This document shows, piece by piece, positions 6,102 through 20,721 of a DNA stretch of 64,000 nucleotides. This stretch comes from Shigella phage vB_SboM_Phaginator. The notes under the pieces were generated by a model. It was not told the origin of the DNA, searched no databases, and saw only the letters and a list, made by a program, of their open reading frames with translations. Numbering within the stretch: position 1 is the first letter of the stretch; every line of letters starts with the position of its first letter. The position numbers and the translations under genes are program-made. Location of the stretch: the sequence record OL615012. One strand, given 5' to 3'.

Positions 6102-6313
6102 ACATTCATCAACTTAGCCGCTTCAAGAGCTGCATCTAGTGAATCAAATTGGTCAACGTATTCAATCAATTCGCCGTAATTGGCATATAACCACCATTGG
6201 CTAAATTCATACTCAAGGATGAATCCATTTCCCTCAATTTGAGTTAAACCATTGCCGTTTGTATTTACTTCATATCCGGCAAGACGTAAATCGTTAATAA
6301 GAGCTTCGTTCAT
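6098..6313 (-). CDS. Hypothetical protein
   Basis: ORF track 71 aa; stop overlaps next start. Confidence 0.5.
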   Translation of the reverse strand: MNEALINDLRLAGYEVNTNGNGLTQIEGNGFILEYEFSQWWLYANYGELIEYVDQFDSLDAALEAAKLMNV

Positions 6314-6315
6314 AA

Positions 6316-6642
6316 TTATACCTTAGTAATTTTCAGGTCTGCAAATTTTTTCTTGCGTTGATTTTTCATGCGACGAATAGTTTTATCGGAAATTTCATGC
6401 TTTTGATAAGCTTTAGATTCTACACCAAAAGCTTTAACATCAAATTCTGACAAGATATATTGAACCAACAATTCACGGACAGTATTGCGTCCAATCTTCT
6501 GATCATTCTGTTTCATCGTCTGATGAAGCTCTTTTTCCCATTTATCCAAAATTTGAGGAGTTACAATATCGCCTTTTTCTAGCAAAGAAACTACTTTATC
6601 ATATGCGTAAGAATTGATGGCGTTTTTAATTTGAATAGTCAT
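6316..6642 (-). CDS. Hypothetical protein
   Basis: ORF track 108 aa. Confidence 0.5.
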   Translation of the reverse strand: MTIQIKNAINSYAYDKVVSLLEKGDIVTPQILDKWEKELHQTMKQNDQKIGRNTVRELLVQYILSEFDVKAFGVESKAYQKHEISDKTIRRMKNQRKKKFADLKITKV

Positions 6643-6675
6643 ACATTATCCTCAATTACGTTAAAATTTTATTAT

Positions 6676-6696
6676 CCAAAAAGGGCCGAAGCCCTT
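6676..6696 (-). terminator. Rho-independent terminator (UUCG-loop hairpin plus U-run)
   Basis: Minus strand AAGGGC-UUCG-GCCCUU followed by UUUUGG. Confidence 0.6.
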
Positions 6697-6895
6697 AGCT
6701 AAACTTTTTGGCACCCTTCCAGCCTTCATACATCATTGCGGCTGATATTAATATTGCTCCTGAGCAACTTGAATATTTGTGATTCCAAAACCAGTTTAGA
6801 AAAACTTCATCGTCAATACCTTGGGCTATCATATTTTCAAAGAACTGACGACGAGATTCGGCAATTCGTTGTGATAATTTAGATTCAGGATTCAT
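6695..6895 (-). CDS. Hypothetical protein
   Basis: ORF track 66 aa; followed by UUCG-loop terminator. Confidence 0.45.
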   Translation of the reverse strand: MNPESKLSQRIAESRRQFFENMIAQGIDDEVFLNWFWNHKYSSCSGAILISAAMMYEGWKGAKKFS

Positions 6896-7027
6896 TTAAA
6901 TTTTCCAGTTACCGTTTTCATCAATAAATTTAATCCAGTCATTTACTGACCACTTAGTTGTATCACCTTTTGGAGTAACATTTAAAGTGTATAACCCCTG
7001 CTTAAAAAGCATTCGTTTGATATTCAT
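6896..7027 (-). CDS. Hypothetical small protein (start chosen at internal Met to avoid 77-nt overlap)
   Basis: Track ORF 6896..7111; internal Met MNIKRM gives a non-overlapping 43 aa product. Confidence 0.3.
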   Translation of the reverse strand: MNIKRMLFKQGLYTLNVTPKGDTTKWSVNDWIKFIDENGNWKI

Positions 7028-7034
7028 ATTTTCC

Positions 7035-7367
7035 TCAGCTGTAACGATAACACTCGTTTGATTTACGTTTAGCAACTCGTTGAGAAGTATTATAATCAAA
7101 ATCATCGTCAATGTAAACTGATTTTTTCAACTTTCTTACTTCACCACGTAATTGGCGATTTAGCTCATCTTTAACTTCTGAATCAATGCCTTTCATTCTA
7201 CGCCATTTATCTGAGCGAAAAATGTTTTCAACCATATCTTTATGACTTACCCCATCAGGAGCTTTACGCTTTCCGAAATAGTCATAATCACGAACTTTCA
7301 AGTCTTTACGACGATACGTTTTACCCATGGAGTTTAATTTCCTTAGCAACTGAACTAAATACAGCAC
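7035..7367 (-). CDS. Hypothetical basic protein
   Basis: ORF track 110 aa, Lys/Arg-rich. Confidence 0.45.
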   Translation of the reverse strand: MLYLVQLLRKLNSMGKTYRRKDLKVRDYDYFGKRKAPDGVSHKDMVENIFRSDKWRRMKGIDSEVKDELNRQLRGEVRKLKKSVYIDDDFDYNTSQRVAKRKSNECYRYS

Positions 7368-7503
7368 GATCGCAAATCATGCGTTTATGTAACTTGAGTA
7401 TAATATAGCAAACTTCAAAACTATTTACATGAATAACACGAACAGCATTACCATTAATGAGATAATACTGTCCCTTTTTAATTTCTTTATCAACCATAAC
7501 CAT
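7321..7503 (-). CDS. Hypothetical small protein
   Basis: ORF track 60 aa; early promoter with 17-bp spacer directly upstream (7534-7563). Confidence 0.4.
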   Translation of the reverse strand: MVMVDKEIKKGQYYLINGNAVRVIHVNSFEVCYIILKLHKRMICDRAVFSSVAKEIKLHG

Positions 7504-7533
7504 ATCAATTCCTCAAAGGTAATTCATATGTTA

Positions 7534-7563
7534 ATAATACCACGGTTTGAACTTGTTGTAAAC
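7534..7563 (-). promoter_or_regulatory. Early (sigma70-type) promoter
   Basis: Minus strand GTTTACA - 17 bp - TGgTATTAT. Confidence 0.6.
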
Positions 7564-7624
7564 AACTTTGTGAAAAATATTTTAGGGAATGACAAGAAGG
7601 GAACGATAGCTTAGAATGGTAATA

Positions 7625-7657
7625 TACAGAATGTAAGAAAGAAAGGCCCAGAGGGCC
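7625..7657 (-). terminator. Rho-independent terminator after nrdH
   Basis: GGCCC-N3-GGGCC hairpin followed by U-rich tract on minus strand. Confidence 0.5.
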
Positions 7658-7661
7658 CGTC

Positions 7662-7970
7662 TTAGTCTTCTATGATATCTCTATTATATCCAAGTGAAAT
7701 GAGAGTTTCTTTGAAGTGTTTAATGTTCTTTTGTCTAGAATCATTAATGAAAATGACTGGATAACGAATGTTAAGAGATGTGAATCCAGCGCGTTTAGCA
7801 AGAGATACAATCAGCGGACGATCATACTCAATCTTACCATTATTTGTAAGAACTTTATAGAAAGTAAAAGGAGCATTAAGCTCCTTTAGAAGTTTTGTAA
7901 CTGATTGACATCCAGGACAACGACCTACTTCATCTGGAATTCCATAGACTTCAATCTTATTTTGTTTCAC
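7662..7970 (-). CDS. nrdH: Glutaredoxin-like protein NrdH
   Basis: 102 aa, CPGC redox motif, adjacent to nrdG-nrdD. Confidence 0.8.
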   Translation of the reverse strand: MKQNKIEVYGIPDEVGRCPGCQSVTKLLKELNAPFTFYKVLTNNGKIEYDRPLIVSLAKRAGFTSLNIRYPVIFINDSRQKNIKHFKETLISLGYNRDIIED

Positions 7971-7972
7971 AA

Positions 7973-8185
7973 CTATTCCTTACTAAGAGCAGCATTCAGC
8001 TTGTTAGTAATTTTATCCAGACGCTTATTGAACTCACTAGAAGATAAGCCCTTTTCTGGAGAAATTAAACTAATCACGAAAAATATAGCAATAAAAGGAA
8101 TAAGGAAAATAGCTCCAACTGCCATAAACAGAAAGAATGTTACGGTTGTAAGAAAATCAGCTAAACCTTTACGAAATTTATACAT
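7973..8185 (-). CDS. Hypothetical small membrane protein
   Basis: ORF track 70 aa with long hydrophobic segment FLTTVTFFLFMAVGAIFLIPFIAIFFVISLI. Confidence 0.5.
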   Translation of the reverse strand: MYKFRKGLADFLTTVTFFLFMAVGAIFLIPFIAIFFVISLISPEKGLSSSEFNKRLDKITNKLNAALSKE

Positions 8186-8299
8186 ATTTACCCTTAATTA
8201 ATTAACCAAGCATTGATAAGCACTAAACTATATTGTGAATAAAATTCTGGACCAAAATGAAAAATCATATCATTTATAGTATCCATAATGTAATTCAAT

Positions 8300-12685: not shown

Positions 12686-12943
12686 TTATTCCTTAATTCC
12701 TAGTACTTGTTTAAAAGTCTCATCGTAATCAAGACTTTGGCCTGTTTGTTCTTTATGTTTGTATATAATATCACTTACTTCTAATAGCATATTTTTGTAT
12801 GAACGAGTTAAAGCAGATTTAAGCACGCTGTATCTATCAGGAAATTTACCATGTTCATTATAATAAGCTATTGCTAATTCACGGACTGCCTTTTCAGCAG
12901 CCTCCATATATTCTTTACGCTTGGTCATTTTCTTCTCGGTCAA
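12686..12943 (-). CDS. Hypothetical protein
   Basis: ORF track 85 aa. Confidence 0.5.
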
Positions 12944-13211
12944 ATCGGTGTTTACAATGGCGACATTTATAACGAAGATTACTAGTCTGCCAATGAACTA
13001 ATTGTACCTGTTCAGTACCGCATTCAGGGCAATTAGGAACGTTTTTAGAAGCCCTTTCGCGACGCTTAACCATAGCCATAATGGCATCCCATGCTGGAGG
13101 TTTAAAATCTAAATCGTCAGTAACTAGCAGTCCTTTATCAAACCCAGCGCATGGAGTCCATTCAGGAAAATCTGAAGCTTCGGCAATATCTTCTAATAAA
13201 CGCTTTTTCAT
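12915..13211 (-). CDS. Hypothetical zinc-ribbon protein
   Basis: 98 aa with CPECG...CRHCKH paired Cys motifs. Confidence 0.5.
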
Positions 13212-14134
13212 TTCAGTACCTCAATAGCATCACGTAAACCATTTGCTTTGGCGGTTAAAGCCTTAAGAACTTTAGTATGCTCTTCAATCTGTTTTTCAAC
13301 TTCAATCAAACGAGCACTGAGATATTCGCGTTCTTCTTTCATAGTATCATTCCCACGATTGGGCTTTGGCGTAGGTTTAAATTTACTAGGGTCCTTTAAC
13401 TTAATAACAACTTTAGTTTCAAACAGTGAAAGACCATAATTCGTATTATCATCAAAGGATTCAACTACGTCCATTTTAGACAATAACGTACGAAGATTAT
13501 AAGTCAAAGAACGAATCGTTTTATTATGTTTATTAGCTTCACATGGTTTCATATATGGAAGATTTTTATATATTTCATGTGGAGCACAAACAATAATTGA
13601 CAATTCAAATAGTCCATTCTGTGATGATGGAATGAATTTAGCCGTAACCCAATCTTTTACATTTACATTAATAGTACGGTCATCGCCATGACAAAACAGT
13701 CTACGAGAATGCTTAAAAAGCATATTCACATTATTATTAAATTCGTGTGAAAACTCACTAGCAAATTTTTCTTTACTATTTTTAGAAAACCATTCTTCTA
13801 AATAAGTTCTTTTCACGTCATTAATAATATTAAATGTAACAACATTAGCATTTGATACATTAGTCTCAATATAGCTTGGATACATAAATTTTTTAACATT
13901 ATTAACAGCTATCACAGAAGATAGTAATCGGGAACGTTTAAACCATTCAAGCAAATTACCTAACGAATGAGAATAAGCGTTTTGAGTATCTTTACAAATA
14001 TGGTTTTCCCATCCAATATAGTCTAAAAAATCACGAAGAATATTATTGATTACTGCTCTGTGTCCGATTTGATAATTACGGTGTTTAGTAATAAGACTGT
14101 CAAAATAATCAATATAATGCTTACGAGTTTTCAT
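13208..14134 (-). CDS. Hypothetical protein, variable N-domain plus C-terminal coiled coil (array member 1)
   Basis: 308 aa; Pro/Lys linker (KFKPTPKPNRG) then heptad-repeat tail. Confidence 0.6.
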   Translation of the reverse strand: MKTRKHYIDYFDSLITKHRNYQIGHRAVINNILRDFLDYIGWENHICKDTQNAYSHSLGNLLEWFKRSRLLSSVIAVNNVKKFMYPSYIETNVSNANVVTFNIINDVKRTYLEEWFSKNSKEKFASEFSHEFNNNVNMLFKHSRRLFCHGDDRTINVNVKDWVTAKFIPSSQNGLFELSIIVCAPHEIYKNLPYMKPCEANKHNKTIRSLTYNLRTLLSKMDVVESFDDNTNYGLSLFETKVVIKLKDPSKFKPTPKPNRGNDTMKEEREYLSARLIEVEKQIEEHTKVLKALTAKANGLRDAIEVLK

Positions 14135-14186
14135 GTTCTTCTCACTTGGTTAATGATTTATACTCCGAGCCATCCTTGGCTTTAAA

Positions 14187-15188
14187 TTACTTAATTAACT
14201 GTAAAGCTTGTTCAAGACGATCCAAGCGATTGACAGATTCTTCCCAAATCTTTTTAGCCTGCTCATATTCTTTCTGCGCTTTATTAGAAATTTCTAGAAC
14301 TTCTTTATAAGCTTTTTCTAGTGCAATAACTTCTGGACGAATTTCTGCCGGTTCAGGCGAATCATCAAGATTATCCATTAGTTCCTCAAGGGTAGTTTCT
14401 TCTTTAGGAGTATTCACAATTTCATCACATTTTTGTTGGTAAATTTCTTTACTAGTAGGTGAATAAGTACATTTCACTTCACGAAGACTAATTACAATTT
14501 TATATCCTTCCCAGCCGCATATATTCTTAAAAGGATATGTATGAATATTTTCTACTGTTTCCATACAAAGTAATGCGGTCTCTAATTGACGAGTTATAGT
14601 GCTAGCAATTGAGAAAAATTTATTAATGTTCTTTTGGTTAGTTTCTGGTGTAAAAAATCCATAATTCACAAAAATAGATACTTTATTTTTATCAAGTTCA
14701 TATTCTTTTATGATAATCATATCAGAAGCCAAAGGATGAATTTGACGATAATCGCCATAACATAATTTAGAAGCTGATTTTAGAATCTGTCCTTTGAAAA
14801 GTCTGAAATTACTAATCCAACGACGAGTAAAAATATTCTCAGGGTCTTCTTTATTATTAAGATGATAAGAATTAACATCACCGAACCAATTATATCCTAC
14901 TACATCTTTGGTTCGTTTAATTTCTTTCCCAAAATTACCAAGAATATCCCGATTAACCAAATATGAAAGAAGACGAGACTCTTTAAAGGTTTTCTTGATA
15001 ACATCTTTATCTACACGGCTAGAAATTTTACGAATTTCATGAATAAATTTAGTAGAAGAAACAATACTTGCATCAACACTATTGAGCCATTGATTGATAA
15101 TAGAAAGAACGATATTTTGACCAAACATCGGTATAGCTTTATCATCAATAACGCTATTGAATGATTTGATATATTCGTTACGAGTCAT
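14187..15188 (-). CDS. Hypothetical protein, variable N-domain plus C-terminal coiled coil (array member 2)
   Basis: Track ORF 14187..15239; start moved to MTRNEY (GAGGAG RBS upstream, and early promoter at 15217-15245 would otherwise lie inside the ORF). Confidence 0.6.
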   Translation of the reverse strand: MTRNEYIKSFNSVIDDKAIPMFGQNIVLSIINQWLNSVDASIVSSTKFIHEIRKISSRVDKDVIKKTFKESRLLSYLVNRDILGNFGKEIKRTKDVVGYNWFGDVNSYHLNNKEDPENIFTRRWISNFRLFKGQILKSASKLCYGDYRQIHPLASDMIIIKEYELDKNKVSIFVNYGFFTPETNQKNINKFFSIASTITRQLETALLCMETVENIHTYPFKNICGWEGYKIVISLREVKCTYSPTSKEIYQQKCDEIVNTPKEETTLEELMDNLDDSPEPAEIRPEVIALEKAYKEVLEISNKAQKEYEQAKKIWEESVNRLDRLEQALQLIK

Positions 15189-15216
15189 AATAATCTCCTC
15201 AGTAGAAAGTAAGAAC

Positions 15217-15245
15217 ATTATACCACATCCTTGTGGCAATGTAAA
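15217..15245 (-). promoter_or_regulatory. Early promoter
   Basis: Minus strand TTTACA - 17 bp - TGgTATAAT. Confidence 0.6.
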
Positions 15246-16265
15246 CTAGTTCAGTGCATTTAGTGCATTGTTCAGTTTAGAACGTTGCTTCGTAAGATTT
15301 TTGACTTTTTCTTGAGCTTTTTCCAACATCTTTTCAGCTTCTAGCACTTCATTGGTCGCTTTAACGAGTTCATCATCTACTGCCTTAAGAGACTTCTCAA
15401 TCGCGTCAGCGTGCCATTTTTCTACAGGTTTAAAATTTGAATTTTCAGTAGGAAGAAAATTCACTTTATTAAGTTTACATGCATCTATATTGCTTGAGCT
15501 ATACATCCAAAATTTAGGATCGTTTGATAAGTAATTGGATAAATTTAAGTTATCTTGCACTTCCTGCTTTTTCTCTTGCGGGACTTCGTCCTTTCTCAAA
15601 AAATCGTATTTAAATGAAACGATCATATCAAGTTCATATGATGTTGTATCTAACTTAAATCGTTCAAAACGAGGTAAAATCTTAGATTGAACAGCAGCAA
15701 CAACATCCATATACTTAAATGCTTCTGTCAACTGTGATTTAAGACATTCACAAATTGAAAGAGAATTTTTTGTATTAGGTTTAAAGCTAATTCGTGCAGT
15801 TCTATTATTTTCTTTTAACGGTCTTACTTCCATCTGAAGAGTATAACCATCAAATTTCAGGTTCTTTAAGTTAATATCAGAGCCTTTTAATCGACTAGCA
15901 GTAGACAAAATTTGCTTTAATTGTCTACGGAACAGAGCAATAAATCTCCATTCAATACGATAATGATTCGGATTGAAAAATCCAGATGATAAATCGACCT
16001 TACTTTGACCAACGCCTTGAACAAATAGAGGATTTTTATAATCAATAGTTTTACAGAAATCGGTGAGCTGCTCACGAGCAGTCATTTGTGTAATATATCC
16101 CGCTTTACTAAAATGACGTAACCATTCACTGCTATTCATATACTTAAAGTGAATATCACGATTAACTTTATCAGGGTCTAAATTATTTTGGCACAAAAAT
16201 GTCATAACATCACGAGTATAGCTGGCATTACGAACCATATCTTCAATTTGAGAACGAGTTTTCAT
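15246..16265 (-). CDS. Hypothetical protein, variable N-domain plus C-terminal coiled coil (array member 3)
   Basis: 339 aa; C-terminal heptad-rich tail. Confidence 0.6.
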   Translation of the reverse strand: MKTRSQIEDMVRNASYTRDVMTFLCQNNLDPDKVNRDIHFKYMNSSEWLRHFSKAGYITQMTAREQLTDFCKTIDYKNPLFVQGVGQSKVDLSSGFFNPNHYRIEWRFIALFRRQLKQILSTASRLKGSDINLKNLKFDGYTLQMEVRPLKENNRTARISFKPNTKNSLSICECLKSQLTEAFKYMDVVAAVQSKILPRFERFKLDTTSYELDMIVSFKYDFLRKDEVPQEKKQEVQDNLNLSNYLSNDPKFWMYSSSNIDACKLNKVNFLPTENSNFKPVEKWHADAIEKSLKAVDDELVKATNEVLEAEKMLEKAQEKVKNLTKQRSKLNNALNALN

Positions 16266-16273
16266 GGTGTTCC

Positions 16274-17161
16274 TTAAGATTTAAGTAAATCAATAATTTT
16301 AATTAACTTTTCACGCTCAGATTTAGCTTTACTACTCAATCCAGATAGTCTGAAAATTTCATCATCATATTGTTGAATAGAAATATTCAGCTCTTCAATT
16401 TGCTTATTAAAATAATCAATTTGTTCAGAATGTTTTTCGTTACTACGAACTGGTACAGGTTTTGTAGGCAATTTAGTTGAACTGGATTCATCCGGGCGAT
16501 AAATTAAAATACAACTTGAACCAATTGGACATTTTGCACCAGATGAATATTCTAATGTTCCAGCTTCTTTTAAAACTTCAAAAGCTAAACAGAGATGATG
16601 CCCCATATTAACATAATCTGTAGAGCGAGCTCTGATGTAATAATCATCTCCGCGAATACTAAATTTAAAGCATTTAAGGTCTTCTGTATTATTGGTCTTA
16701 AAAATCATTTGTTTATCTAGACCTTTAGCTAATCGAGCGCCTAATGCTAATAATCGTCGTTGATTTTCCCACAAATCCGCAATCATTTGGTCAAATGATA
16801 ATTTCGGCATTAGTCGACCATAAAGGTCGTATCCTTTATTATAATTGCGAAGGATTTCACTCGCGTTAATACGAGACAATGCTCCAATTTTATTAAGGGC
16901 TTTCATGATGCGATTAGATAAACCCATTCCAGACCCGTTTGTTCGCTGTAAATGTTTTTCTAATCCAAATCCAATATCAACTTTAAACTTATCTAAAATT
17001 TCTGCATGAACATCTCTGTCAATAACATTCAAATCCAAAGTTGGGTTAAATCTATGAAAAAATTTATCTGGCTCTCCACGACGAAGTACAGTCCATTCAT
17101 TCAATTTTTTATTAACTAAAGATTTAATTACTGCATTGACATTATTAATTACTACTGACAT
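16274..17161 (-). CDS. Hypothetical protein, variable N-domain plus C-terminal coiled coil (array member 4)
   Basis: Track ORF 16274..17182; ATG with GAGG RBS at 17161 (MSVVINN...). Confidence 0.6.
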   Translation of the reverse strand: MSVVINNVNAVIKSLVNKKLNEWTVLRRGEPDKFFHRFNPTLDLNVIDRDVHAEILDKFKVDIGFGLEKHLQRTNGSGMGLSNRIMKALNKIGALSRINASEILRNYNKGYDLYGRLMPKLSFDQMIADLWENQRRLLALGARLAKGLDKQMIFKTNNTEDLKCFKFSIRGDDYYIRARSTDYVNMGHHLCLAFEVLKEAGTLEYSSGAKCPIGSSCILIYRPDESSSTKLPTKPVPVRSNEKHSEQIDYFNKQIEELNISIQQYDDEIFRLSGLSSKAKSEREKLIKIIDLLKS

Positions 17162-17168
17162 ATTTTCC

Positions 17169-17576
17169 TCACTCAATTTCAATTTTACTAAATACGCAGA
17201 ATATGATGGAAAAGACTATATAAGCACCGCATACAGATTGAACTAATACCATTCCAAAGAACCAAACAATATTATCAAACAATGTCTGTTTTACGTCGAA
17301 AGGACGTAAACTTACAGTAATATTATCGTCTTTTTCTATTGATGAATACATCTCTGGGGAAATATATTCGCTAAATCTATAACCGTCTTTGAGTTCATAT
17401 ACGGCAATAAACGATAAACTAGACCCCTTTCCTTGAGTTCCTGTAAGGGTATTAACTACAGTAACATCATAATCTTTATAATGCATATAATCATTAATTG
17501 CGTAATAACCATATGCAATTACTATACATAAACAACATATCAATAAATTCAATCTTTTAATTATCAACTGTTTCAT
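17169..17576 (-). CDS. Hypothetical membrane protein (two predicted TM helices)
   Basis: 135 aa; hydrophobic N- and C-terminal segments. Confidence 0.55.
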   Translation of the reverse strand: MKQLIIKRLNLLICCLCIVIAYGYYAINDYMHYKDYDVTVVNTLTGTQGKGSSLSFIAVYELKDGYRFSEYISPEMYSSIEKDDNITVSLRPFDVKQTLFDNIVWFFGMVLVQSVCGAYIVFSIIFCVFSKIEIE

Positions 17577-17604
17577 AATAATCTCAATTAAAAGGGCTTA
17601 GAAC

Positions 17605-17633
17605 CATTATACCATCCTTGGTATAAAGCGGTT
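17605..17633 (-). promoter_or_regulatory. Possible extended -10 promoter (weak -35)
   Basis: Minus strand TGgTATAAT with no good -35; overlaps palindrome ATACCATCCTTGGTAT. Confidence 0.3.
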
Positions 17634-18159
17634 ATGCGAGTACCGTCTTTAACCGTTCTTCAAACTTCCGAAGAGTATTTTGGCGTTCAGCTCTTTGCTT
17701 TTTGTAAGTTTCAATACGCTCTGAAATGAGAGTGTATCGTTCATTTACTGATTCTTTCATAAAATCAGGAATTTCACGAGAAGCTTTAATCTCGTCAAAT
17801 TTATCAATAACAGCTTGCTCTTCAGCAATTAAGTTATCATACATCAAAATATCTTTCTTGATGAACTCAATATCTTCTTGAGTTACACGAGATAATTTAG
17901 ATGCTTTATCCTTTTTGTACTGTTCGTTAGTATCACGAGACCAGTGTAATGTACGATTTTTATTCGTATTTTTGTAAATTTCTACAATACCAATCTCATC
18001 GATAATAACGATCCAATTCCAACGGGATTTGTAAATTTGTCCTCCATCAACCGTGATTTCACCTCCGATTGAGATGTCATTAAAGAACTTGCTTTGTGCT
18101 TCTGATTTAAATTTACCATCGTTGTAATTTACCAGGTTGAAAATATCTTTAGCGTTCAT
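17632..18159 (-). CDS. Hypothetical protein
   Basis: Track ORF 17632..18219; start moved to MNAKDIF (GGAGGA RBS); upstream part of track ORF is promoter read-through. Confidence 0.55.
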   Translation of the reverse strand: MNAKDIFNLVNYNDGKFKSEAQSKFFNDISIGGEITVDGGQIYKSRWNWIVIIDEIGIVEIYKNTNKNRTLHWSRDTNEQYKKDKASKLSRVTQEDIEFIKKDILMYDNLIAEEQAVIDKFDEIKASREIPDFMKESVNERYTLISERIETYKKQRAERQNTLRKFEERLKTVLA

Positions 18160-18187
18160 TTTGTGTTCCTCCGTAGTTGATAGTTGT

Positions 18188-18216
18188 ATAGTACCACAGA
18201 GGAACAGTCTTGTAAA
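18188..18216 (-). promoter_or_regulatory. Early promoter (PeSL-type consensus)
   Basis: Minus strand GTTTACA - 17 bp - TGgTACTAT - ACAACTATCAACT. Confidence 0.65.
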
Positions 18217-18219
18217 CAA

Positions 18220-18534
18220 CTAAAAGAAACTTCTTTCACAATTTTTTCCACTGAACCATGCACTGACCGCTTTCTTAGTCTCAGGAGCAGTGTTATCCAT
18301 AAACCATTCAAAGGCAGCCTTTTTATGATTCTGGAGGGCTTCTCGGGCTTTAATCTGCTCACGGTCTATTAACACTAATACGTGAGCCTTTCTTGTCACC
18401 ATGGGCTTCTTATGATTTTTTGAATACTCCCAATCATTTGTCCATCGCATCGTTGTTGCGAACTGATGAACCGCGTCTTTAATTTTAGTTTCATAAATTT
18501 CACGAGCCTTTGAGTATAACATCATTACCTCCAT
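18220..18534 (-). CDS. Hypothetical protein
   Basis: ORF track 104 aa. Confidence 0.5.
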   Translation of the reverse strand: MEVMMLYSKAREIYETKIKDAVHQFATTMRWTNDWEYSKNHKKPMVTRKAHVLVLIDREQIKAREALQNHKKAAFEWFMDNTAPETKKAVSAWFSGKNCERSFF

Positions 18535-18623
18535 TTACCAGTTTAATTCTAGTCATCTTTTTAATGGCAGTCCATATAATCTATTTCTGAACTGCCTTTT
18601 TGTCATAGAAGTCCTCTTATGAA

Positions 18624-19592
18624 TTATTTCAGAAGAGTAACCTCAGCAATTTCTTCCCAACCGTTTTTGTCGGTCATAATAAAGTCAGCAAGATAAAGTG
18701 CAGTACGCAGTGAAACATTGCGTAAACGATTAACATTAACTTTCATCCATGATAATGCTTTATAAGTTTCTTCATCAGAAAGACCGCGCTTTTGCATCAT
18801 GTCAGTTGAAAGAATAACATCTTCAACCCTGACCATAATTTCTTCATTAGTGTGAACACCCAAATCTAAATAAACTGAGCGGGACACTAATGCTTGTAAA
18901 TGTGGAGCAAGTTTAGTACCACGGTCTAATTCGCGGTCAATGTCAACGTTTGTGATAAAAACAATCGTTCCTTTAAATTCAAACTCACGCTCAATGCCTT
19001 TTTCTTCTAAGTAAGAAGATGCAGTGCTCCAGCAGACTTTACGGGTCTCTCCAGTGTCCAGAGCAGCTTTCAGAAGATTAAGAATGTCCATATCAGAGAA
19101 AACATCCACATCATCAATCAAAAGGACAGAATTCTCTTCACGATTATTCCAAAGTTGTTCATAAAGACCGATACCGGAGATTTTACCGTTAATGCTTTTA
19201 TATTCAATGTATCCAATATCATTTGCTTTATTTAAAGCTTTATCTAAAGAATACGTTTTACCAATACCCGCCGCACCAGAGATAATTAATGAACGAATGT
19301 TTCCGTTAATAATACCATTCGTCATCATTCCCATAACATTAAATCTTTTATTAATGCGGGTTTTCATATCTTCATATGATTCTTTAACTTCTTCAACTTT
19401 TACACCATCATATGAAATGTCTGATTTGTAAACCCAAACACCGCGACGCTTACCGTCAATTTCAACAAAAACTTTACCATCTCCTTGTGCATCCACCGGA
19501 GCATTATCTGGGAACCATTCGCCTAAGAGCTCAAAAGTTCCAGAGATTTCTTTACCGAAGTAGATACCCTTATTGATAGTTACAGTTTTCAT
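18624..19592 (-). CDS. P-loop NTPase (AAA-like ATPase), function unknown
   Basis: Walker A GAAGIGKT and Walker B VLLIDDVD; track ORF 18624..19760 trimmed to MKTVTINKG (GGAGAA RBS) because promoter and terminator lie in the upstream part. Confidence 0.65.
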   Translation of the reverse strand: MKTVTINKGIYFGKEISGTFELLGEWFPDNAPVDAQGDGKVFVEIDGKRRGVWVYKSDISYDGVKVEEVKESYEDMKTRINKRFNVMGMMTNGIINGNIRSLIISGAAGIGKTYSLDKALNKANDIGYIEYKSINGKISGIGLYEQLWNNREENSVLLIDDVDVFSDMDILNLLKAALDTGETRKVCWSTASSYLEEKGIEREFEFKGTIVFITNVDIDRELDRGTKLAPHLQALVSRSVYLDLGVHTNEEIMVRVEDVILSTDMMQKRGLSDEETYKALSWMKVNVNRLRNVSLRTALYLADFIMTDKNGWEEIAEVTLLK

Positions 19593-19626
19593 TTTATTCT
19601 CCAAATCCGTATCAGTTGATAGTTGT

Positions 19627-19655
19627 ATAGTACCATAAAGCTTTATGCTTGTAAA
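19627..19655 (-). promoter_or_regulatory. Early promoter (PeSL-type consensus)
   Basis: Minus strand GTTTACA - 17 bp - TGgTACTAT - ACAACTATCAACT; terminator hairpin immediately upstream. Confidence 0.65.
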
Positions 19656-19677
19656 CTGTTTTGTGAAAAATTTTTGA

Positions 19678-19705
19678 AATAAAAAAAGGGAGCCCGAAGG
19701 CTCCC
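19678..19705 (-). terminator. Rho-independent terminator after NTase gene
   Basis: Minus strand GGGAGCC-UUCG-GGCUCCC followed by UUUUUUU. Confidence 0.75.
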
Positions 19706-19707
19706 TA

Positions 19708-20721
19708 TCATTTATAATAACTTCGGTGGTTTTCAAGATAGACCTTCTCAAGGAAGTCATCCCAGAAACTCATGTCTACTTTTTGCTGCATACCGTTCTT
19801 AGAAGCTTCAGTAGATGCTGCTTCTACTTGATCGACCACATCTTCCAAAAACTCTTGAACCGTTTTAAATGGATGCTTACCCAACTTCACGTCAAGAATA
19901 AATGGAGCATCTTTGAGTGGATAAACCAAGTCACCAGTTTTGTAAATTTCCAATAGTTGGAGTCCACCACGGCAAGCATGACTCAGAGCTTTCCAGTCAA
20001 TACCTTCATTGGCTTCGGCCTTACGAGCACGTTCACCATATTCAGCATCTAATTTGTTCAGTGACTGCTTAAGCTCAATAAGAGAAAGCGTTGTCTGATA
20101 TTTACGACCCAACACAGTGTAGAACGTTTGTGGGCCTGTTTTCTCATGATTATGGAACACCCATTCACAGAATTCGTTTTCTGGAAGACGATGCTTAATA
20201 TCTTCAACTTTAGTGCGACGCTGCTTAATGGAACCGTCTTCTTGGTAATCAACCCATTGCTCGGGGATTTGATTAACTACTTTCAATACATCACGTAATG
20301 CAGCCAAACGAGAACCCTTGACACCGTATTTAGAAGCTTGCTTGCGGACATATCCTAAATAGGATTTCATGTTAGTCGTATAAAAACGAGAACGGTTGTC
20401 TTGAATAAACTTCCACACATCAGGCAAATCAGATTTAACCACTAGTTCAGGTGGAGTGTGAAGCATATCCAATGCTACAGTTTCACCATCTGCTGCTAAT
20501 TTAAAGAAATATTTAAGACTGTATAGTTCATGGTCAATATCATCTTTAGTGTTTTTAGATGATGTGTTGTTAGTGTTTTTACTCATGTGCTCTTTAACGT
20601 TTCCGATAAGAATATCACGAGCAGGAGGAACAAAGATTTCTTTAAAATCTACATCAGATTCTGGAGTAGAAGTTCCATAAAGATGACTACCAAAATAGCT
20701 TTTCATTACTGTTTTCATCAT
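19708..20721 (-). CDS. Pol-beta superfamily nucleotidyltransferase-fold protein, function unknown
   Basis: 337 aa; N-terminal GS-x9-DVD motif (FGSHLYGTSTPESDVDF) with a downstream acidic residue (DMLH). Confidence 0.65.
   Translation of the reverse strand: MMKTVMKSYFGSHLYGTSTPESDVDFKEIFVPPARDILIGNVKEHMSKNTNNTSSKNTKDDIDHELYSLKYFFKLAADGETVALDMLHTPPELVVKSDLPDVWKFIQDNRSRFYTTNMKSYLGYVRKQASKYGVKGSRLAALRDVLKVVNQIPEQWVDYQEDGSIKQRRTKVEDIKHRLPENEFCEWVFHNHEKTGPQTFYTVLGRKYQTTLSLIELKQSLNKLDAEYGERARKAEANEGIDWKALSHACRGGLQLLEIYKTGDLVYPLKDAPFILDVKLGKHPFKTVQEFLEDVVDQVEAASTEASKNGMQQKVDMSFWDDFLEKVYLENHRSYYK

Follow-up and report, generated by a model that had tools for sequence, protein, structure and literature searches.

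Here we describe an array of four genes in a 64,000-nucleotide stretch of DNA from Shigella phage vB_SboM_Phaginator (record OL615012), the whole of which is referred to below as the window. The window is a segment of a Tequatrovirus (T4-like) genome, and synteny with phage PP01 and with T4 identified the four genes as nrdC.3, nrdC.4, nrdC.5 and nrdC.6 of T4 (Table 1), lying between nrdC.2 and the gene for the membrane protein nrdC.7. Comparison of sequence profiles and of predicted folds revealed that the four form a tandem array of ancient paralogues of one family, each product being built from a head, a proline-containing linker and a C-terminal heptad helix. The initial annotation of this DNA, made from the sequence alone, had recognised four consecutive genes of similar size, and the open reading frames (ORFs) were confirmed at exactly those coordinates. 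The products are 95.5% (nrdC.3), 97.9% (nrdC.4), 93.5% (nrdC.5) and 97.7% (nrdC.6) identical to the T4 proteins, and the 4.4 kb around the array match 508 phage records (461 of them across 80% or more of the query), the highest identity being 97%. The start codons assigned initially agree with the conserved N-termini of homologues; for nrdC.4 the start is further supported by the strong sigma-70-like site upstream of it.

Table 1. Genes of the array, the C-terminal helices and linkers of their products, and the promoter-like site (window coordinates)
Feature	Coordinates	Strand	Description
nrdC.3	13208..14134	minus	308 residues; Tequatrovirus/Mosigvirus-type duplicate of the Y04OP family; full-length phrog_1435 match
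nrdC.3 heptad helix	13211..13351	minus	residues 262-308; no Pro, one Gly; linker 13352-13408 (VIKLKDPSKFKPTPKPNRG)
nrdC.4	14187..15188	minus	333 residues; Pfam PF26897 Phage_T4_Y04OP
nrdC.4 heptad helix	14190..14336	minus	residues 285-333; acidic Pro-containing linker 14337-14471 (ending TPKEETTLEELMDNLDDSPEPAEIR)
nrdC.5	15246..16265	minus	339 residues; Pfam PF23882 DUF7235; orthologue of the T4 anti-Dsr1 protein
nrdC.5 heptad helix	15249..15425	minus	residues 281-339; linker 15426-15602 (ending FLPTENSNFKP)
nrdC.6	16274..17161	minus	295 residues; Pfam PF26899 Phage_T4_Y05B
nrdC.6 heptad helix	16277..16435	minus	residues 243-295; possible break at SGLSS; linker 16436-16498 (RPDESSSTKLPTKPVPVRSNE)
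Sigma-70-type promoter-like site	15217..15245	minus	TTTACA-17-TATAAT plus TG extension; directly upstream of nrdC.4

What is already known of these genes is that they are named T4 genes in existing families, and that an anti-defence role has been published for one of them. All four proteins belong straightforwardly to PF26897, PF23882 and PF26899, and to PHROGs 1435, 2351 and 2257. The match of nrdC.5 to PF23882 reaches 391.5 bits (cut-off 30; E-value 4e-117) over model positions 1-307 of 307, phrog_1435 aligns at full length with both nrdC.4 (E 2.6e-168) and nrdC.3 (E 1.7e-100), and nrdC.6 covers positions 1-303 of 303 of phrog_2257 (E 5.3e-153); by precomputed annotation, the homologues of nrdC.4 all carry PF26897 and those of nrdC.6 all carry PF26899. 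Pfam and PHROGs already merge nrdC.3 with nrdC.4, the name Phage_T4_Y04OP covering both. The databases nevertheless keep three separate families to which no function is assigned, whereas here profile-profile and fold comparison joins them into one superfamily of head-linker-coiled-coil proteins, a unification that we did not find in the literature searched. T4 is the best-studied phage, yet three of the four array genes lack an assigned function; if all four genes are copies of one design, an anonymous block of genes becomes cheap to probe experimentally.

The relationship is clearest for nrdC.3 and nrdC.4, which are full-length homologues by BLASTP (E 1e-4 over 275 residues) and by profile comparison with HHalign (probability 98%, E 4e-14). 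The two were combined into one profile, and divergent orthologues found in phage C6, in two Gaprivervirus phages and on one metagenomic contig were added to that of nrdC.5. Against the combined profile, nrdC.5 gave a probability of 92% in a local alignment (E 5.9e-7, residues 49-339 against 65-333) and of 95.5% in a global one (E 4.8e-9), the alignment being collinear and taking in head, linker and tail up to the final residue. The corresponding values for nrdC.6 were 67% (E 5.2e-5) and 85% (E 6.4e-7). Local scores were 55 for nrdC.5 and 41 for nrdC.6, compared with maxima of 31 and 26 for controls consisting of the reversed profile and 12 block-shuffled ones; the global alignment of nrdC.6 likewise exceeded every control.

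Structure prediction led in the same direction. The AlphaFold2 model of nrdC.4 is confident (predicted local distance difference test score, pLDDT, 83; predicted template modelling score 0.67). In it a helical N-terminal subdomain spans residues 3-84 and is followed by an alpha/beta sandwich at 88-235; the linker, at about 240-284, is modelled with low confidence, and the tail helix occupies 285-332. A search of BFVD with this model returned 20 uncharacterised viral proteins at E ≤ 1e-3, matched over the full length at 10-19% identity. Those that bear a name belong to phages of T4-type (Straboviridae-type) hosts, and the matches include nrdC.3 of fPS-65 and nrdC.6 of JS10 (E 4.8e-5), as well as proteins of Acinetobacter, Klebsiella, Erwinia, Serratia and Pectobacterium phages; a protein of Aeromonas phage Aeh1 matched weakly (E 0.023). 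Collinear profile or fold similarity of the heads, the criterion by which we recognise a superfamily, thus extends across nrdC.3 to nrdC.6. Each head comprises about 220-240 residues, is basic (isoelectric point 9.1-9.5, net charge +7 to +11) and combines a helical N-terminal subdomain with a two-layer alpha/beta sandwich, and the N-termini of the four are alike (MKTRKHY, MTRNEY, MKTRSQI). No DNA-level repeats linking the four genes were found, from which we conclude that the duplications are old; furthermore, because head and tail are collinearly homologous, whole genes must have been duplicated. The initial annotation had proposed paralogues of one architecture in which unrelated N-terminal domains vary upon a common tail. 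The paralogy and the architecture are borne out by these comparisons; the heads, on the other hand, proved to be homologous, clearly so in nrdC.3 and nrdC.4 and remotely in nrdC.5 and nrdC.6, and the picture of exchanged heads gives way to whole-gene duplication.

The C-terminal part of the architecture was examined separately. In all four proteins the head is followed by a disordered, Pro-containing linker and then by an amphipathic heptad helix of 47-59 residues, somewhat longer than the 45 or so first proposed, which runs to the C-terminus and contains no more than one Pro or Gly. When hydrophobicity was averaged over each family, Fourier analysis placed the best period of the tail at 3.45 in nrdC.3, nrdC.4 and nrdC.6 and at 3.50 in nrdC.5, and the power observed at 3.5 was reached by 24 (nrdC.3), 2 (nrdC.4), 0 (nrdC.5) and 24 (nrdC.6) of 2000 shuffles. 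When the 59 non-overlapping ORFs of at least 120 codons in the window were ranked by the 3.5-periodicity of their last 45 residues, the four genes took ranks 1, 2, 4 and 6, and the hypergeometric probability that a prespecified four would fill four of the top six ranks is about 3e-5. AlphaFold2 predicted a single helix at residues 285-332 of nrdC.4 and at 280-338 of nrdC.5, the latter with a pLDDT of 75-94 despite a poorly modelled head. By a cruder score based on heptad a and d positions, the best window of nrdC.4 fell outside its tail; the Fourier test placed it there. The head-linker-heptad-tail architecture of the four genes is therefore real and beyond chance. The tails have the heptad periodicity, in a helix free of breakers, that is expected of coiled coils, pairing of the helices being a prediction.

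No match to an enzyme was obtained for the four proteins. Sequence searches of Pfam, NCBIfam and the PDB returned no informative family for nrdC.3, nrdC.4 or nrdC.6, and neither an enzymatic family nor a relative of solved structure was found. This result fits binding proteins rather than enzymes. Many GenBank records call the products of nrdC.1 to nrdC.11 "thioredoxin", a label propagated from the gene name. No Pfam or NCBIfam match to thioredoxin or glutaredoxin was obtained for the four proteins at E ≤ 1 or 0.1, and the fold predicted for nrdC.4 by AlphaFold2 differs from that of thioredoxin; the comparison thus also corrects a widespread mis-annotation.

On the measure of pairwise identity, the array genes diverge far faster than their neighbours. 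Between the window and phage C6 the flanking genes are 68-87% identical (endonuclease VII 87%, NrdC 84%, nrdC.10 78%, nrdC.11 83%), whereas nrdC.4, nrdC.5 and nrdC.6 retain 43%, 21% and 47%, and C6 has no nrdC.3. Comparison with a metagenomic relative gave 98% for nrdC.10 and 90% for nrdC.9, but 56%, 40% and 52% for nrdC.6, nrdC.5 and nrdC.4. Within Tequatrovirus, nrdC.3 occurs as two allele types that are about 61% identical in phages that are otherwise 98-99% identical. The ratio of nonsynonymous to synonymous substitution rates (dN/dS) is 0.08-0.32 for nrdC.3, nrdC.4 and nrdC.5 (0.08 for nrdC.3 against PP01, otherwise 0.12-0.32), compared with mostly less than 0.1 in the flanks.

As sequence families these are small: tblastn detects nrdC.4 in 553 phage records, nrdC.5 in 562 and nrdC.6 in 741, and an exhaustive HMMER search of 1.84 billion proteins with the nrdC.3 and nrdC.4 profile returned 10 representative clusters and no relatives outside the family; scans of IMG/VR likewise yielded close relatives only. 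Mapping of presence and absence across T4-like phages, as the initial annotation had proposed, demonstrated that copy number varies between genera, with three or four members in the array. nrdC.6, nrdC.5 and one Y04OP-type gene occur together at every Tevenvirinae locus examined; the loci of C6 and of the Gaprivervirus phages have exactly these and lack nrdC.3, and RB69 has nrdC.6, nrdC.5 and nrdC.3, with no nrdC.4 annotated. In Slopekvirus Matisse and Krischvirus JSE no such ORF was found in the 8 kb retrieved to either side of nrdC.11. In Acinetobacter phage DLP3 (L013 15393-16424, 343 residues) and Aeromonas phage asfd_1h (L015 11225-12058, 277 residues), ORFs with similar coiled-coil tails (for example, one ending TLEETIKILSK) lie in the region from nrdC.11 to nrdC. 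Sequence profiles gave no link between these two ORFs and the family; the BFVD fold matches in Acinetobacter phages Acj61 and Acj9 suggest that such ORFs of distant genera may belong to it.

An experimental anchor for function is available for one member. In the available excerpts of Srikant et al. (2022, eLife, PMC9391042), a T4 clone that had lost large segments no longer plated on ECOR17, disruption of dsr1 in ECOR17 restored infection, and plasmid-expressed T4 nrdC.5 restored infection by the deletion mutant on Dsr1-expressing cells, nrdC.5 alone being enough to overcome the Dsr1 sirtuin defence. The same excerpts place the array genes, which are non-essential, in the early nrdC-mobD region, describe nrdC.5 as early, and report that the genes were lost in evolved T4 at no cost on the standard host. 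The sigma-70-like site fits this description of an early gene; it is a consensus match only, at 11 of 12 positions, and is the best in 12800-18800. The sensor of Dsr1 is homologous to that of Avs7 and is triggered by the phage major capsid protein (2026 Nature paper, PMC13581612). The nrdC.5 protein of the window is the orthologue of T4 NrdC.5, as judged by 93.5% identity over 339 of 340 residues, the same genomic position and membership of the same DUF7235 family, and by this orthology to the tested protein it is a candidate anti-Dsr1 protein. Of the two roles first suggested for the family, effector or decoration, the former is consistent with the published activity; the latter is at odds with early, non-essential genes behind a sigma-70-like promoter. 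The excerpts of PMC9391042 treat T4 nrdC.5 as an isolated uncharacterised early gene and do not describe the head-linker-coiled-coil architecture or the kinship to nrdC.3, nrdC.4 and nrdC.6. Our literature searches found no study of these three genes and nothing beyond Srikant et al. on the mechanism of nrdC.5.

Taken together, we consider it somewhat better than an even chance (roughly 0.55) that nrdC.3 to nrdC.6 are a paralogous, fast-diverging family of early anti-defence proteins, with heads directed against different immune proteins and tails that oligomerise. Paralogy, fast divergence, gain and loss of genes, dispensability and the lack of an enzymatic fold would all fit such a family of binding proteins. 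In this scheme synthesis of the proteins would be early and would precede that of the late structural proteins to which such sensors respond. The host immune protein that is bound and blocked would differ from head to head, and oligomerisation through the coiled-coil tail, either with further copies of the protein or with a partner specific to the paralogue, would lend avidity for oligomeric defence proteins. We infer an anti-defence function for nrdC.3, nrdC.4 and nrdC.6, which would be inhibitors with other specificities and are good candidates for further anti-defence proteins. A functional analogy, with no claim of kinship in sequence or structure, may be drawn with DSAD1, a phage protein that inhibits the sirtuin defence DSR2: in the excerpts available on it, DSAD1 neutralises an NADase of SIR2 type whose trigger is a structural protein of the phage, the differences being that it acts on DSR2 and that the trigger there is the tail tube protein, whereas the sensor of Dsr1 recognises the major capsid protein. 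Phage tail-terminator proteins, with a lambda gpU-like fold, are also counted among the closest known systems.

Several results weigh against the anti-defence reading. Experimental support is confined to nrdC.5, and even there we infer direct binding to Dsr1; the basic heads would suit nucleic-acid binding too. The dN/dS of nrdC.6 within Tequatrovirus (0.03-0.11) is not above that of its neighbours, and gene-wide dN/dS is below 1 in all four genes, so that positive selection is not demonstrated. The AlphaFold2 model of nrdC.5 is poor (pLDDT 47, from a shallow alignment) and its head unusable, so that structure prediction of the N-terminal domains succeeded for nrdC.4 and failed for the member with a published function. 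Finally, nrdC.5 and nrdC.6 gave no significant direct match by HHalign; because of this their kinship is transitive, through nrdC.3 and nrdC.4, and this link and that of nrdC.6 to the nrdC.3 and nrdC.4 profile are the weakest in the superfamily.

A wider version of the anti-defence reading is possible, and we regard it as distinctly more doubtful. Here nrdC.3 to nrdC.6 and the proteins related to them at the level of structure in the T4-like phages of Acinetobacter, Klebsiella, Erwinia, Serratia and Aeromonas would be modular blockers of immune sensors found throughout the Straboviridae. Their heads would plug sensors that recognise phage structural proteins, nrdC.5 plugging Dsr1 and the rest other sensors, such as those of the Avs7/Dsr1 type, and the paralogue-specific tail would set the oligomeric state, matching that of oligomeric defence complexes. 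If this were true, the nrdC region of T4 would be an anti-defence island built from one fold.

The initial annotation had offered another model, in which a common coiled-coil tail docks the four proteins onto the same partner, of phage or host origin, where they present different heads. A heptad helix does run to the C-terminus in all four, and the four ends share the motif Lxx[AIT][LI]xx[LI][KN], which was defined post hoc and occurs in no other ORF of at least 100 codons in the window. Within orthologue groups the tail is also better conserved than the head, with mean pairwise identities of 0.66-0.79 and 0.53-0.62, respectively. What is conserved, however, is a different sequence in each group: the nrdC.4 tail (PEVIALEKAY...NRLDRLEQALELLK) persists in orthologues that are just 33-50% identical overall, and the nrdC.6 tail, together with the linker motif PVPVRSNEKH, is nearly invariant across orthologues that are 42-58% identical. 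Comparison of tail-only profiles between paralogues gave P-values of 0.002-0.2, against 0.1-0.76 for reversed-tail controls, and the value was only 0.044 even for the tails of nrdC.3 and nrdC.4, a pair with clearly homologous heads. Similarity of tails across paralogues is thus suggestive at best, nothing being demonstrable beyond the heptad pattern and the post hoc motif; each paralogue has its own constrained tail, and one common docking sequence is not supported. Group-specific conserved tails fit self-association or paralogue-specific partners at least as well as a single shared partner. Moreover, members come and go independently (nrdC.3 being absent from C6 and Gaprivervirus, nrdC.4 from the annotation of RB69), and in the excerpts of PMC9391042 plasmid-borne nrdC.5 is active by itself in an uninfected-cell background, with the reservation that a partner might be supplied by the infecting phage. 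We therefore think shared docking improbable.

The same tails could instead pair with one another, the paralogues assembling through a hetero-oligomeric coiled-coil bundle into one multi-headed complex. Distinct tails that are strongly conserved within each orthologue group are what specific heteromeric pairing would predict, the genes are adjacent and co-oriented, and nrdC.6, nrdC.5 and a Y04OP-type gene keep company at all the Tevenvirinae loci mentioned above. Such a complex would, however, have to tolerate three or four members depending on genus, the wider detection of nrdC.6 by tblastn than of nrdC.4 or nrdC.5, and the frameshift that removes the nrdC.6 tail from the T4 reference. Complementation by nrdC.5 alone also speaks against it, with the reservation that the excerpts of PMC9391042 do not state which of the other three genes the infecting mutant retained. 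We judge this arrangement to be about as unlikely as docking onto a shared partner.

Little better can be said of the third alternative, that the four have no connection with immunity and are host-takeover or nucleic-acid-binding proteins, for instance modulators of the host RNA polymerase or of the nucleoid, and that the anti-Dsr1 effect of nrdC.5 is indirect. The charge of the heads and the early expression described in the excerpts of PMC9391042 are both in keeping with it. Against it stand the dispensability of the genes in laboratory hosts and their cost-free loss in evolved T4, as reported in the same excerpts, and a very fast divergence, accompanied by change of copy number, that is atypical for binders of conserved host machinery; we place its chances on a par with the two preceding models. 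To our knowledge nrdC.3 to nrdC.6 are not among the described virion components of T4, and a role as virion decoration or structural proteins, which the superficial likeness of the coiled-coil tails to fibrous or decoration proteins might bring to mind, is practically excluded by the location of the genes in an early, non-essential region (in the excerpts cited) behind a sigma-70-like promoter and by PHROG families that are unassigned in function rather than structural.

Frameshifts in the array genes are common in database genomes. In T4 (NC_000866, 7567-8394) nrdC.6 has a 1-nucleotide deletion relative to about position 16345 of the window (gagctg-atatt against gagctgAatatt), which shortens the product to 275 residues and removes the coiled-coil tail, the tail being intact in another frame; the deletion reflects a mutation of the laboratory strain or else a sequencing error of long standing. 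In RB69 (AY303349, 5474-6500) the nrdC.5 gene as annotated ends out of frame, with an intact nrdC.5-type tail (...LQLQYSKLFNAMNALKS) in another frame, and in PP01 (6240-8200) nrdC.5 and nrdC.6 are each frameshifted near the N-terminus.

Larger variants were also observed. Shigella phage Sf25 (P0122) carries an nrdC.6 with an internal tandem duplication of 83 residues, a 299-residue fusion (P0056) combines the middle part of nrdC.5 with the C-terminal half of nrdC.3, and one Y04OP protein (L020 4307-5278) has an in-frame deletion inside the tail. In other Tevenvirinae a predicted membrane protein of 67-71 residues is encoded between nrdC.6 and nrdC.5 (L007 7133-7348; L008 6857-7060; L023 2808-3023); this small gene is absent from the window and from T4, and the gap between nrdC.6 and nrdC.5 is just 8 nucleotides (window 16266-16273).

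Among the neighbouring genes, nrdC.8 (17632-18159, minus strand, 175 residues) also has a heptad-like helical C-terminal tail; by HHalign it showed no relation to the four, and it evolves slowly, with 68-100% identity across genera. Farther upstream, at 18624-20721 and in the same direction of transcription, lie nrdC.10 and then nrdC.11. The former encodes an AAA-type ATPase, with a faint match to PF13173 (AAA_14) on the C6 homologue, and the latter a nucleotidyltransferase of the RlaP family (PF10127, from precomputed annotation of homologues), which is detectable in 1504 phage records and is thus far more widespread than the four array genes.

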